Source: a virus (Duplodnaviria; Caudoviricetes). Taken from it: 64,000 nucleotides of DNA. The stretch is from positions 1 through 64,000 of IMG/VR virus record IMGVR_UViG_3300028591_000136; one strand, 5' to 3'. Of this stretch, positions 44,518 through 64,000 are shown piece by piece. Below the pieces are notes generated by a model. That model searched no databases. It was not told the origin of the DNA and was given only the letters and a program-made list of their open reading frames with translations. The first letter of the stretch is position 1. Every line of letters begins with the position of its first letter. A program made the translations under genes and the position numbers.

Positions 44518-44592
44518 TGGTCCCGGCGACCGGTTCGCTCCAGTTATTTTGGGGTTAGAGCCCAATGTGTTAGCATCATACACCACACCGAA
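44518..44592 (-). tRNA. Amber suppressor tRNA (anticodon CTA), Gln-like body
   Basis: Minus strand TTCGGTG-TG-GTGT-atgatgcta-ACAC-A-TTGGG-CT[CTA]AC-CCCAA-aata-ACTGG-agcgaa-CCGGT-CGCCGGG-A-CCA. Perfect anticodon arm and encoded CCA; atypical 6-nt T-loop. Confidence 0.8.
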
Positions 44593-52861: not shown

Positions 52862-53095
52862 ATGTGGAAACCAGGAAATTTAGTAACGATTCAAGAACGC
52901 ATCCCTATGGATGGTTCATTCTTAATTGTGTCGACAAAGTGCAGAGTCGTACACAACAGTGGACATCACAGATGTTTAAATTGTCCAATGCAACAAAAGT
53001 ATTGCAATATAGACAAATGTGAACAAATGCTCCCACAAAATTGCACACTCAAAAAAGCTCAAATAGATCCTGAGCAAGTAGTGGATCTAAATTAA
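52862..53095 (+). CDS. Cys-rich KPG-family small protein (paralog 3)
   Basis: MWKPGNLVTI...CLNC...C...CEQMLPQNC. Confidence 0.6.
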   Translation: MWKPGNLVTIQERIPMDGSFLIVSTKCRVVHNSGHHRCLNCPMQQKYCNIDKCEQMLPQNCTLKKAQIDPEQVVDLN

Positions 53096-53109
53096 AACAT
53101 TTATCAAAA

Positions 53110-55752: not shown

Positions 55753-55825
55753 GCGTTGTTAGCTCAGTTGATAGAGCACCGGCTCAATAAGCCGGAGGTC
55801 GTTGGTTTGAGTCCAACACGACGCA
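55753..55825 (+). tRNA. Aberrant tRNA (loop TCAATAA: AAT in the canonical register, CAA in a shifted register)
   Basis: All stems intact, but C at position 33, D-loop GA instead of GG, and T-loop TTTGAGT. Confidence 0.6.
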
Positions 55826-55864
55826 CAATGCAATATTGCAGAAAATGATCAAAACATTATCAAA

Positions 55865-56293: not shown

Positions 56294-56836
56294 ATGAGAA
56301 AATTATTAAGCTTAATGCTTGTAGCAGCAATGGGAATTATACTTCTCGGAAGCTGTGAACGTTTGGGTATCAAAAGTCCAGGAGACAACTATGATACCTC
56401 TGATTCTGCACAAGTAGCAGAGTATGTAAATCATGCAGTAAATCCATCTATTATGGATATTGCAGAAGCGCTCTCTCTGAAGCAACAAATGCTTGAAAAA
56501 CAGTCTATCGACTCTGCGTTTGTATCTCTTTCTGATGCTACAATAAGAAATGTTGCATCTGTGTTACTGAAAAAGAACAGTTTTATACACAAGAAAGATA
56601 TTATAGACGAGTATCGACGATGTCAAAACGTATACGACAATCTTCCGACTGACATAAAAGCAACTGCCGTTGATAAAACTGCTACTGATTTAGGCACTAG
56701 GCAGTCTGGAGGAAATGATTCAACTGATCCTGCTAGTTCCAGCAATGTTATTAGCAATAACCTTAGCTTTAGGACTGACACTATCGCTGGCAAGCCGACT
56801 AGAGTCAAAATTCAAACGATAGAAAGTTATGAATAA
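56294..56836 (+). CDS. Lipoprotein
   Basis: Signal peptide ending in the lipobox LLGS-C. Confidence 0.7.
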   Translation: MRKLLSLMLVAAMGIILLGSCERLGIKSPGDNYDTSDSAQVAEYVNHAVNPSIMDIAEALSLKQQMLEKQSIDSAFVSLSDATIRNVASVLLKKNSFIHKKDIIDEYRRCQNVYDNLPTDIKATAVDKTATDLGTRQSGGNDSTDPASSSNVISNNLSFRTDTIAGKPTRVKIQTIESYE

Positions 56837-57488
56837 GCACGCTATAGTAATATTATATTCAGGCGCAGATCGTGATCCTGGGTATGATGTGATTGAGAGT
56901 ATTGCTAGTGTTATAACACAAGCAGGATTAGCTGTACCTGAACTGATAGAAATTAAACATTTCAACTCAGATTCTATTGGTAAAGCATTGCTTACGAAGA
57001 GCGCTGAAGATTCGAAGATCTCTTTTACAAAAAATCTTGATGCAAAGAAAGTATGCATTACACTTGATACACAAGATTGCGAAAACAAACTCCAAGTTGT
57101 AAAATGTATTAAGGAATTCCTTGATTGTGGTCTTAAAGAGGCAAAGGATATGTTCGATTGTGGCAAGGTTTATATTCCTAAATCCTGGACCGATAACAGA
57201 ATCTATGCCTTTATAGAAGACCTTCACATCCACAAAGCCGCTGTAACAAGCGGCATAGAAGACATTGCTATGATACAGGCAGCTATCTTCTTGAACGGTA
57301 CTTATCGTACAAAAGACAGTATCATTTTCGTGAGAGATTTTGCTGCAGCAACGTATCACTTTCATACCAATGGTGCTAATGAAGAAGAACGAGCGTTGTT
57401 GACAGCTGTTGAATTGGTTAAAAACAATCCAAAAAGCGCCGTTAGGTGGGTATCATCAGAGTTAGTAAACGTAATCAACTCGTTGTAG
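56829..57488 (+). CDS. Protein containing a ribosomal bL12 (L7/L12) C-terminal-like domain
   Basis: NKLQVVKCIKEFLDCGLKEAKDMFD matches the bL12 CTD signature K..VIK.VRE.TGLGLKEAKDLV. Confidence 0.7.
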   Translation: MNKHAIVILYSGADRDPGYDVIESIASVITQAGLAVPELIEIKHFNSDSIGKALLTKSAEDSKISFTKNLDAKKVCITLDTQDCENKLQVVKCIKEFLDCGLKEAKDMFDCGKVYIPKSWTDNRIYAFIEDLHIHKAAVTSGIEDIAMIQAAIFLNGTYRTKDSIIFVRDFAAATYHFHTNGANEEERALLTAVELVKNNPKSAVRWVSSELVNVINSL

Positions 57489-57658
57489 TATGTGTTGGCA
57501 TCAAGATTATCGTACGGGTAAAACAGTTCGTTATAAGGCGTCTGACAAGTCAAAACACGCTAATGCTGTTCCCTACAAACGTGCTGAAAAGCATAAAATG
57601 TCCACTAAGGACTATGTTCAATAAACTTTAAGTTAAACAATTAAAACATTTATCAAAA

Positions 57659-58315
57659 ATGACAGACAAAACAAAAAAGGAGACAAAACCTGTAGTATTA
57701 ACACAAGACAACGTCATCGAACAGGCTAAAGCTGGTAACATCATGACCACTGACATGGTCAACAAGATGAACGAAGAGTTAAAAGATGAGCAGAACAAAC
57801 AAGTAATTGCTGAAACCAAGCGTCGTTACACCAAGATTGCATATGTTCGCAGCATGTCTTTGGTGCACAAGCGTAAGTCATCAGACTATGATAACATGAG
57901 CACGTACAATATACGTCAGCTCGGTCGTCTGGAGAGATTCTTGTGTGGTTTTGTAGTAACCGACATCATCGTCGACGAGTTTGCTCGTACGAAGGATGAT
58001 ATCCTTGAGCTGGAGGTGCTTGATGAGAAGAAGAAGACTCTTACCATCAAGATTCCTAACGCTGATGGCAAGCGTGAGGCTAAAGAATTCAAAGTCGGTG
58101 ATAGCGTTCCTCCTGTGATCAGCTATATCGAGTTCGACGAAGCCGTCGAGAAGCTCGAGAAGAAGCTGCGTGAGAAACGCACGGAAATCGAGAATAAGCA
58201 CACCGAAGAGGTTAAGACCATCAAGCAGGCAGCTGGTGAATACTACTGCAGCGACTGGTCATACAACCTTAAGATTGTGACTATGGACGGTTTCCAGAGT
58301 GCTCGTGGTTGGTAA
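57659..58315 (+). CDS. Probably highly expressed hypothetical protein, 218 aa
   Basis: MCP-like codon bias and the AAACATTTATCAAAAATG leader. Confidence 0.7.
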   Translation: MTDKTKKETKPVVLTQDNVIEQAKAGNIMTTDMVNKMNEELKDEQNKQVIAETKRRYTKIAYVRSMSLVHKRKSSDYDNMSTYNIRQLGRLERFLCGFVVTDIIVDEFARTKDDILELEVLDEKKKTLTIKIPNADGKREAKEFKVGDSVPPVISYIEFDEAVEKLEKKLREKRTEIENKHTEEVKTIKQAAGEYYCSDWSYNLKIVTMDGFQSARGW

Positions 58316-58335
58316 CCACAGTGATTCACTTATCC

Positions 58336-58790
58336 ACACAGTTCGAGCCTAGAGCCAATACTGTGTAAAACAGAGAATGCAGACTACGTTATGGATAATC
58401 CGTATAATACAGTGAAGTGGGTATTGCACCGTGATTCTTCCAAGCATTAGTACGGTAGGGTATCGACACTCGCATTCAACAAATTGTAGAATTAACTACA
58501 CATACTAAAGAGCCTAGAGCCATGTATGGGATAAAAACGCCGTCCACACGGTGTAAAATATGTGGTCATTTGATCAAAATCACGAATCATGTTGAGCCTT
58601 GAGCCAACATTATGTTGCATGATGATTTCAAGAATGCAGATATGACCTATTTCCGAGCCTTGAGCCAGCATTTAGACCACCATATCACCTAATTTTAAGG
58701 TTTCAAGAAAAGCCTTTCTAAGCGTTTTTAAAGCTTGAGTGGATTAGCTACCCACGAGAGTAGAGAAAATGTCTCAGAGAGCCTAGAAAT
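58336..58790 (+). repeat. Array of GAGCCTWGAGCCA motifs, mostly enclosed by sequence-variable stems
   Basis: Copies at 58345, 58510, 58594 and 58655, plus a partial copy at 58779. Confidence 0.8.
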
Positions 58791-58839
58791 GGCCTTAAAT
58801 CGAATGTTTTGACTGATCATCTTAACATTCACAACAAGA

Positions 58840-59115
58840 ATCTTAGCGTGTCCCAGGATACGTCGTTCGGACGGGGGTTCGATTCCCCCCAGGTCCACCT
58901 GTACGGTTCTTTTACGTAGCGACCGATGGGTACAGCCGGTGAATTTTCTACCTAAAAAGAAAAGCTACAATCCGGGCTTGAATGGTTTAGACGGCGACAG
59001 AAAGTAAGACATTAAGCGCTTTGATATAAAAATTAACTGGCAATATTAAAATTGCAGACTACACGGGTCTCAAGGAGGCAGCGTGAAGTCGGTGTACAGG
59101 CTACCTAAGTGCCTG
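58840..59115 (+). ncRNA. ssrA: Circularly permuted (two-piece) tmRNA
   Basis: The 3' tRNA-like half (GTCGTT..GGGGG-TTCGATT-CCCCC-CAGGTCC-A, 58862-58897) precedes the 5' half (GGGCTTG-AATGGTTTAGAC-GGCGAC, from 58974). The acceptor stem has the G3.U70 pair. Resume context TAACT-GGC; tag GNIKIADYTGLKEAA-TGA at 59039-59086. Outer boundaries are approximate. Confidence 0.85.
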
Positions 59116-59123
59116 TGAAACGA

Positions 59124-59198
59124 GAATGAGTTGAGTGAGAGGATAACTGTCCTGCAGCTTTGCCGGATCACGTGGGTTCGAATCCCACACTCATTCCA
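59124..59198 (+). ncRNA. tRNA-like element with canonical acceptor stem and T-arm but non-canonical D and anticodon arms
   Basis: GAATGAGT...GTGGG-TTCGAAT-CCCAC-ACTCATTC-CA. Confidence 0.55.
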
Positions 59199-60502: not shown

Positions 60503-60705
60503 GGCTGACAACTTAATCTGGATTAGTATTCCAGCAGCCCGCAATACTTGACGAGGGTGGGTGGAATAAATCTCTCACACAGTACTGAGAGGCAGTAGGC
60601 ACCACTATGGTAGGTAGTACGAAAGTGGAGTGTAGTCAAGTAAACTTATACAGCACCGTCTGTTACGCGAGTGACACGCTAATAACCGGTAAAATTGTTT
60701 TGATT

Positions 60706-61678: not shown

Positions 61679-61761
61679 AAATATCTATATGAAGAAAATA
61701 TAGGTCACAGTTAAGTAGTTTGACCGGCTACAAGTAAATAATTCTAAATCACATTATCAAA

Positions 61762-63711: not shown

Positions 63712-64000
63712 TAGCTCCGCAGGGGGACAGTATGAGGATTTGTACTGTCCCACCCCGTTGGGGACCTGGTCAGCATTCGTCTAAGGAATTGGTCCCATTA
63801 GCCATAGAATGCGAAATAGTACAACTTGATCCGAGAATATGTCAGCCTTCTCAAAAGGTGAGAAACCCAAAAGGTAGGATGAAATGCTGCATTGTATACG
63901 TACTATATACCGAAAAGTTTGCAGTAAGAGGACAGAGCGTTTGTATCAAGTCCTTTGGCCATTGAGAACCGTCTGGAGAATGGGTGACCATAAAAACGCG

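Follow-up and report, generated by a model that had tools for sequence, protein, structure and literature searches.

A four-hairpin leader RNA upstream of a crAss-like phage tmRNA looks like the decoy arm of a translation-control circuit

Introduction

In the CsrA system of translational control, a single protein reads a short RNA motif and is titrated by non-coding RNAs, CsrB or RsmZ, in which several hairpins with variable stems display that same motif, GGA (A(N)GGA), at 7-22 sites; the motif also overlaps the translation starts of the target mRNAs. Here we describe a locus of similar layout in a crAss-like phage (Duplodnaviria; Caudoviricetes): a leader RNA of ~490 nt, lying directly 5' of a permuted (two-piece) transfer-messenger RNA (tmRNA), in which four hairpins present one bipartite loop motif, referred to below as the module. 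The DNA is IMG/VR record IMGVR_UViG_3300028591_000136, of which positions 1 to 64,000, called the window throughout, form part of a phage genome of 101,107 bp.

Phages provide further points of comparison. The translational operators of T4 include the RegA regulon, the hairpin operator of the gp43 DNA polymerase and the pseudoknot leader of gp32, and the coat-protein operators of MS2 and PP7 are protein-read hairpins at a start codon that carry a bulged purine two base pairs below a small loop. GOLLD and ROOL are large, ornate phage RNAs of unknown function, non-coding and encoded near tRNA or tmRNA genes.

The phage leader has in common with CsrB and RsmZ that it is non-coding and that one short loop motif is held on several variable stems, and module copies likewise abut translation starts, with four sites 0-14 nt before an ATG that are conserved in relatives. 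The motif itself differs, being a bulged mini-hairpin of the form GARYC-N2-3-GARYC or GUAUC-N3-GUAUC; there are four sites in the leader and no CsrA homologue in the phage, and the array is built into a larger fold that contains a pseudoknot and is fused to the tmRNA transcription unit. With T4 it would share the control of replication-gene translation, DNA polymerase included, by RNA elements at start codons, but T4 has no multi-site decoy RNA, this phage has no RegA homologue, and the module is unrelated in sequence and shape. The MS2 and PP7 sites, each a lone operator in an RNA phage, would resemble the module in shape alone. From GOLLD and ROOL the leader differs in size and architecture, and Rfam covariance models gave zero matches over 58316-58805 at E <= 1. 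The system therefore belongs to neither the CsrA-CsrB/RsmZ nor the T4 RegA family, as the motif differs and neither PF02599 nor PF01818 finds a match. Full-text literature searches turned up no description of the leader element, which appears to form the decoy arm of a translation-control circuit not described before and does not look like a tRNA sponge.

Results

A repeated loop motif in a conserved leader RNA

Exactly four copies of GAGCCTWGAGCCA are present in the window, all on the plus strand and each in a hairpin loop; two have a TAG form and two a TTG form, and their positions are those given by the original prediction (Table 1). When up to two mismatches were allowed, five matches were found in the window against 1.21 expected, a number reached by none of 100 shuffles; without its final A, the motif has five further plus-strand copies beyond the window. 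Three of the stems first assigned to the four copies are present (ACACAGT/ACTGTGT, CATAC/GTATG and ATGTT/AACAT), while the fourth, AATGC/GCATT, gives way to GATATG/CATATC, the conserved stem of hairpin D. What had been taken for a partial copy at 58779 is part of a separately conserved 3' segment, which reads GAGAGGCTTTAAATGGCC or AGAACGCACAGAAATGGC in relatives.

The nearest named records to this phage are cr273_1 and cr272_1 (Crassvirales, Suoliviridae, Oafivirinae, Buhlduvirus). Relatives were retrieved through these named records and through a 17-mer that is conserved toward the 3' end of the leader, and 16 distinct leader sequences of the Oafivirinae were aligned. The leader takes the same place in all of them, between a conserved open reading frame (ORF) and the permuted tmRNA; its predicted location just 5' of the latter was borne out by both ARAGORN and the Rfam model RF04321. 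The layout is common to the 16 sequences as well, with hairpins A to D at about -350, -250, -160 and -75 nt from the 17-mer and each capped by the motif. A hidden coding region was rejected, since the interval holds no credible ORF on either strand.

Covariation was tested on the aligned core, which takes in three elements: the AAUUAA hairpin, an H-type pseudoknot and hairpin B together with its mini-helix. In this core 87.7% of cells are paired, compared with 24-40% when the partners are slid by 1-3 columns, and none of 500 shuffles reached the observed values. Compensatory changes are found in 17 of the 21 core pairs, those of the pseudoknot included, whose helices show them in 9 of 10 pairs with 88-94% of cells paired. 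G-U pairs occur on the plus strand only, which identifies it as the strand that folds.

Outside the core, a long-range helix, P0, covaries through eight different sequence pairs; in relatives its arms read, for instance, TCATCC/GGGTGA, TTTATCTTC/GAAGATAGA, GCGTTG/CAACGC, GTGTTG/CAACAC, AAATCC/GGGTTT or TTCTTCTTCT/AGAGGAAGAG. For hairpin A the folding energy is -9.5 kcal/mol, at a z-score of -3.2, and the predicted fold includes the GC/GC mini-helix of its loop. Homologues of hairpin C carry the modules GAACC-ATC-GAGTC, GAACC-AGA-GAGTC and GTATC-ATT-GTATC, and the outer stem of hairpin D covaries, with GATACG/CGTATC at the same place in the relative L023. The proposed array of constant loops on variable stems is thus supported at the level of RNA.

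The bipartite module and its relation to the phage tRNAs

Comparison among relatives resolves the motif into two pentamers separated by a spacer of 2-3 nt, with the consensus 5'-G1 N2 [N3 N4] C5 U N(N) G N9 [N10 N11] C A-3', in which the bracketed dinucleotides pair. Position 3 of the first pentamer faces position 4 of the second as G:C, A:U or G:U, and position 4 of the first faces position 3 of the second as C:G, U:A, U:G or A:U, so that combinations such as GAGUC/GAACC, GAACC/GAGUC, GAGAC/GAUCC and GUAUC/GUAUC are seen. These pairs are intact in every positional homologue. Since the inner dinucleotides are always complementary, each loop folds as a mini-helix of 2 bp with a loop of 5-6 nt and a bulged second base. 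The spacer is free to vary (TA, TT, TTA, TTT, TCA, AT, TAA, ATC, AGA and CA).

This structure bears directly on the role first proposed for the array, namely that loops displaying UAG or UUG sequester the suppressor tRNA of the phage and a second, odd tRNA (55753-55826) and so gate a switch to TAG as a sense codon. The setting is correct, in that the phage is TAG-recoded and has its own suppressor tRNA, with recoding confined to the minus-strand late genes. The complementarities of 7 nt are also literally there, GGCUCUA in the anticodon arm of the suppressor and GGCUCAA at 55781-55787 in the odd tRNA. Across six genomes, however, the best matches between motif and tRNAs of the same genome (5-8 nt) were no longer than those of cross-genome controls, which averaged 6.0 nt and reached at least 7 nt in 31 of 95 pairs. 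The spacer that forms UAG or UUG varies among relatives, and the bases that would contact tRNA positions 30-32 are engaged in cis, in covarying pairs with the first pentamer; pairing with positions 30-31 would in addition require the anticodon stem to melt. The motif did not covary with tRNA anticodon arms across relatives, a comparison that the original prediction had itself proposed: the nearest relative (G001), though TAG-recoded, displays only UUG in its loops, with a best tRNA match of 5 nt, and in G005 the suppressor arm, GUCUCUAAA, mismatches the loops. The GUAUC form of the module, described below, would place a U opposite the universal U33, so that its target tRNA would need A33. Sequestration of the suppressor as a gate on recoding is therefore rejected, and we regard any tRNA-sponge role as scarcely credible.

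Module copies at start codons and in a giant non-coding RNA

A strict scan of the genome (GA[GA][CT]C-N2-3-GA[GA][CT]C with complementary inner dinucleotides) returned nine modules on the plus strand, which is the sense strand here, and none on the minus strand. In the loci of 14 relatives the count was 75 sense and 0 antisense. In scans of viral contigs with a single pattern, most hits were chance singletons, and only loci with 3-4 clustered matches are informative.

Apart from the leader, one of the nine copies lies near the 3' end of a non-coding stretch of 2.2 kb (hereafter the giant RNA), and the remaining four directly precede genes of the replication block, that of the DNA polymerase among them, at 0, 6, 14 and 1 nt from the ATG (Table 1). 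Because only 6.3% of positions in the plus-strand block are within 15 nt of a gene start, the placement of all four has a probability of 1.6e-5. The gene-start sites are kept at orthologous places in G001 (77-83% DNA identity), and the site at the polymerase start is also found in L017, L019 and L026, where the halves are swapped and still complementary.

The giant RNA begins within the window (63712-64000), and in other lineages its site carries the GAAUC or GUAUC allele. The sequence after the module at 65770, GTAAAATATTTTCAAGG, resembles the leader pseudoknot linker and the UUUCAAGAA box. Among the early transcripts of phi14:2, likewise a crAss-like phage, two of the most abundant are long intergenic RNAs whose function is unknown (bioRxiv 10.1101/2020.03.07.982082).

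These distances, together with the fold, also speak to an explanation at the level of DNA, either an iteron-type origin with a DnaA box, which had been offered as an alternative, or a promoter or operator for a DNA-binding protein such as the ECF-type sigma factor encoded by the phage 2 kb downstream of the leader. The repeats are indeed clustered in a non-coding gap, the box TTATCCACA is present at 58330-58338, and oriented DNA sites can be strand-asymmetric too. Yet the box, which reads TTATCCAAC, TTATCCGGT or TTATCTTCA in relatives, is not conserved as such and coincides with a strand of P0 and the foot of hairpin A, that is, with a covarying RNA helix. Covariation is confined to one strand, including G-U pairs and a pseudoknot, and the pentamers covary as complements instead of being identical repeats; they stand 2-3 nt apart, not 16-17 nt, and distances of 0-14 nt to an ATG do not fit a fixed promoter geometry. 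The minimum of the cumulative GC skew is at 46.6 kb, where gene orientation switches, not at 58.5 kb. The origin is accordingly rejected, and a DNA-level element of any kind appears very improbable.

A concerted switch of allele

In four genomes (cr7_1, G006, G007 and G008) the module is of the GUAUC type, and each of them holds exactly seven GTATC-N2-3-GTATC sites, seven sense and none antisense, where a rough estimate of the chance expectation is ~0.2 per strand. Four of the seven lie in the leader, one in the giant RNA and at least one at a gene start. In G007 this gene is the DNA polymerase, with the site 2 nt from the ATG; in cr7_1, G006 and G008 it is a RecA-like ATPase, at 0 nt; and in cr7_1 the sigma-factor gene has a site across its codons 2-6. 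Two further sites of G007 (62299 and 99346) are not close to any ORF start. Some GAGCC-type phages carry a third allele, GAAUC, at giant-RNA or sigma-start sites. Beyond the covarying mini-helix, the GAGCC and GUAUC alleles differ in the bulged base and in the last loop base, A versus U.

To judge by the sequences, such a joint switch of all copies, in non-coding RNAs and mRNAs alike, is as would be imposed by a single sequence-specific trans-acting reader. The complement GGCTC is absent within 1.5 kb either side in the present genome and in L018, and for the complement GATAC the same interval holds no site in L050 and a single, distant one, at -1479, in L008. Because no complementary RNA is encoded nearby, a protein would be the simplest reader.

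A concerted switch is compatible with any single protein as the reader, and so with a nuclease too. T4 RegB cuts within the ribosome-binding sites of early mRNAs, and by this model the module would be a cleavage or processing signal of a sequence- and structure-specific endoribonuclease that cuts polycistronic early or middle transcripts at gene starts and dices the leader and giant RNA. The sites do fall at gene junctions, right at start codons, and the genome already places processing-like elements, resembling the T-arm of a tRNA, 5' of its polymerase and primase genes. Four sites clustered in so elaborate a conserved fold, which has both a pseudoknot and a long-range helix, exceed what a cleavage signal needs, however, and scans of the early ORFs brought up no candidate enzyme. 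We consider a nuclease signal quite unlikely.

The leader as part of the tmRNA locus

In its 3' part the leader carries a hairpin, GUGG-AUUAGCUAC-CCAC (GTGG-ATTAGCTAC-CCAC in DNA), that is a near copy of the "790 loop" of 16S rRNA helix 24. The counterpart in Escherichia coli 16S rRNA, CAGGATTAGATACCCTG, is CAGG-AUUAGAUAC-CCUG as RNA and CAGG-ATTAGATAC-CCTG as DNA; the stem changes are compensated and the loop differs by one change. The exact 17-mer of this hairpin is present in 22 viral contigs, unrelated phages included, always 50-110 nt before the T-arm of the tmRNA, and thus belongs to the tmRNA module. A looser look-alike, CTGG-ATTAGTATT-CCAG, lies at 60519-60535, upstream of the sigma-factor gene.

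The leader adjoins the permuted tmRNA on the same strand, in place of the clade-specific protruding 5' region, but is outside the model of the tRNA-like domain, whose match begins at 58838. The Rfam model of two-piece tmRNA deliberately leaves out such clade-specific protruding 5' regions (PMC11915505). No terminator-like site was found between leader and tmRNA, and the two are most likely co-transcribed.

The sequence (T)TATCAAA(A) immediately precedes the ATG of at least eight early genes (e.g., at 53095-53109, 55850-55864, 57644-57658 and 61747-61761). Similar boxes, TTGATCAAAA and TTTCAAGAA, are conserved in the leader as single-stranded linkers, one of them at 58570-58579.

From these features an explanation centered on the ribosome can be built, in which the module would be a cis-acting translation element that recruits the 30S subunit, or S1, to the mRNAs of a non-Shine-Dalgarno host or positions it there, and the leader a ribosome-directed domain that extends the two-piece tmRNA functionally at its 5' side and replaces a lost pseudoknot ring. 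Topologically the leader takes exactly the place that PK2-PK4 have in a permuted tmRNA, on the 5' side of the P2b strand, and no terminator-like site separates it from the tmRNA; it has a pseudoknot and the 790-loop-like hairpin, and its boxes resemble the UAUCAAA that precedes the AUG of those early genes. The ribosomal RNA and proteins are nevertheless too conserved to account for a lineage-specific switch from GAGCC to GUAUC, the module is also present in the giant RNA, far from any tmRNA, and phages that share the 790-loop-like hairpin and the tmRNA type are without the hairpin array. As an account of the module this seems unlikely to us. The pseudoknot, the UAUCAAA-like boxes and the 790-loop-like hairpin do suggest that the leader transcript has more than one job.

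Genomic context

The late genes of the phage, on the minus strand at 1-44.4 kb and 80.4-101 kb, form long frames (up to 4,951 aa) only when TAG is read as sense, whereas in-frame TAG is nearly absent from the plus-strand block (44.6-80.3 kb) and entirely absent from the plus-strand genes that flank the leader. In the recoded relative G001 neither ARAGORN nor Rfam detected a CUA suppressor. Pfam and PHROGs searches of neighboring and early ORFs identified a DNA polymerase, a DnaB-like helicase, AAA_24, a Toprim primase, the ECF-type sigma factor and a borderline bL12 C-terminal domain; the last is in ORF 56829-57488, between the tRNA genes and the leader, with an L7/L12 C-terminal domain match of 25.8 bits against a cut-off of 25.9.

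The ORF that directly precedes the leader in every relative encodes a protein rich in K, E and R with a basic helix (LRARRRE in many relatives). In its AlphaFold model (predicted local distance difference test, pLDDT, 80) the protein forms a coiled-coil hairpin, to which a beta insert is added in the present phage and L018 only. Against the PDB this model gave zero fold matches at E <= 0.001, and a peptide-pattern search for relatives of the protein found none.

The tRNA-like element that follows the tag frame of the tmRNA has a good T-arm and acceptor stem and an aberrant anticodon region, and its equivalent in cr7_1 is annotated as a tRNA-Cys that overlaps the tmRNA. The odd loop of tRNA 55753 is conserved, the G002 orthologue having UCGAUAA (GAU), also with C33. 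Elements resembling a tRNA T-arm and acceptor are located just 5' of the DNA polymerase and primase genes (genome positions 69790-69830 and ~76390-76420, beyond the window), with the same upstream arrangement at the polymerase gene of G007, and these may be RNase P/Z processing signals.

Table 1. Positions of the leader RNA, its parts, the module copies and neighboring genes in the phage genome
Feature	Position	Strand	Remarks
Amber suppressor tRNA(CUA)	44521-44592	-	Rfam 32.3 bits; missed by ARAGORN; heads the minus-strand late block; GGCTCTA in anticodon arm
Odd tRNA	55753-55826		Anticodon loop UCAAUAA, C33 replacing U33; ARAGORN call Ile(AAU)
Conserved ORF	57659-58315	+	148-218 aa in relatives; directly 5' of leader
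Leader	58316-58805	+	Structured non-coding RNA; conserved position, covariation
P0, 5' strand TTATCC	58330-58335	+	Pairs with GGATAA 58529-58534; within the proposed DnaA box
Hairpin A	58336-58366	+	Stem ACACAGT/ACTGTGT; module GAGCC-TA-GAGCC-A at 58345-58357 (TAG form)
P1 hairpin TGTAG-AATTAA-CTACA	58485-58500	+	AAUUAA loop near-invariant; 4 of 5 pairs with compensatory changes, 16 sequences
Hairpin B	58501-58528	+	Stem CATAC/GTATG; module 58510-58522 (TAG form); covariation
P0, 3' strand GGATAA	58529-58534	+	Long-range helix with 58330-58335
H-type pseudoknot	58537-58565	+	S1 ACGCCG/CGGTGT; S2 CCACA 58544-58548 with TGTGG 58561-58565; linker GUAAAAUA
GAUCAA box, single-stranded	58572-58577	+	Near-invariant, 15 of 16 aligned; GCUCAA in L008
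Hairpin C	58586-58623	+	Module 58594-58606 (TTG form)
UUUCAAGAA box	58626-58634	+	Conserved
Hairpin D	58639-58686	+	Outer stem GATATG/CATATC (58639-58644/58681-58686); module 58655-58667 (TTG form)
790-loop-like hairpin	58739-58755	+	Near copy of 16S rRNA helix 24 loop; part of tmRNA module
Supposed partial copy	58778-58787	+	Not a module copy
Permuted (two-piece) tmRNA	58806-59177 (ARAGORN)	+	RF04321 match 58838-59086, 65.5 bits; directly 3' of leader
Second tRNA-like element	59125-59196		Rfam tRNA 33.9 bits; after tmRNA tag frame
Module in giant RNA	65770	+	2.2-kb non-coding stretch; hairpin CATCC/GGATG near its 3' end
Module at DNA polymerase gene	69844	+	0 nt before ATG; phrog_1252, E 1e-139
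Module at 188-aa ORF	71893	+	6 nt before ATG
Module at 197-aa ORF	74663	+	14 nt before ATG
Module at 146-aa ORF	79840	+	1 nt before ATG

Discussion

The distribution of the module, four times in the leader, once in the giant RNA and otherwise at gene starts, suggests an operator for a trans-acting factor and, in the leader, a multivalent decoy for the same factor, following a logic like that of Csr/Rsm; to this reading we give about an even chance. Of the ideas put forward in the original prediction, it is the comparison with CsrB and the alternative of a protein sponge that survive, the sponge role itself being proposed by analogy. The module would be the recognition site of one factor, most likely an RNA-binding protein encoded by the phage, which when bound at a start codon would block, or otherwise set, the initiation of translation. 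Repression is the default expectation because a factor sitting 0-14 nt from the AUG would keep the 30S subunit from binding. The four-site leader could then act as a reservoir that titrates the factor and sets its free concentration, and the single site in the giant RNA might likewise titrate it.

Several observations weigh against the operator and decoy. Over the whole leader the folding z-score is -1.7 on the plus strand and -3.2 on the minus strand. No match to CsrA (PF02599) or to T4 RegA (PF01818) was obtained at E <= 1 in the 101-kb phage genome, Pfam scans of 26 early ORFs, with PHROGs searches of early ORFs too, gave no RNA-binding domain, and a comparison of the proteomes of the present genome, G005, G007 and cr7_1 yielded no clear outlier that tracks the allele. 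ORF 57659-58315 was considered as the reader and set aside, as it has no fold match and its basic helix is the same in a GAGCC-type and a GUAUC-type phage. The set of genes that carry the module varies by lineage (polymerase, RecA-like ATPase, sigma factor), which makes for a fluid regulon, and both the sponge role and the choice of repression over activation are argued from analogy and should be interpreted with caution.

The operator and decoy can be extended to the Oafivirinae as a whole. It is possible, though doubtful, that these phages run a self-contained post-transcriptional circuit, in which a phage protein reads mini-hairpins at the start codons of replication genes, while a four-site decoy RNA made together with the tmRNA, along with the site in the giant RNA, times their translation, and the mimic of the 790 loop links this circuit to manipulation of the ribosome.

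The analysis removes a tempting but wrong tie between the leader RNA and stop-codon recoding. In its stead it offers a concrete candidate regulon, in which the RNA module, the multi-site RNA and the set of target genes, DNA polymerase among them, are all defined, and it points to a natural switch of specificity, GAGCC-type versus GUAUC-type, that could be used to find the reader and to prove its identity. Few viruses of the human gut rival the crAss-like phages in abundance, yet almost nothing is known of how they control expression post-transcriptionally; the leader and its module may give access to this layer of regulation.

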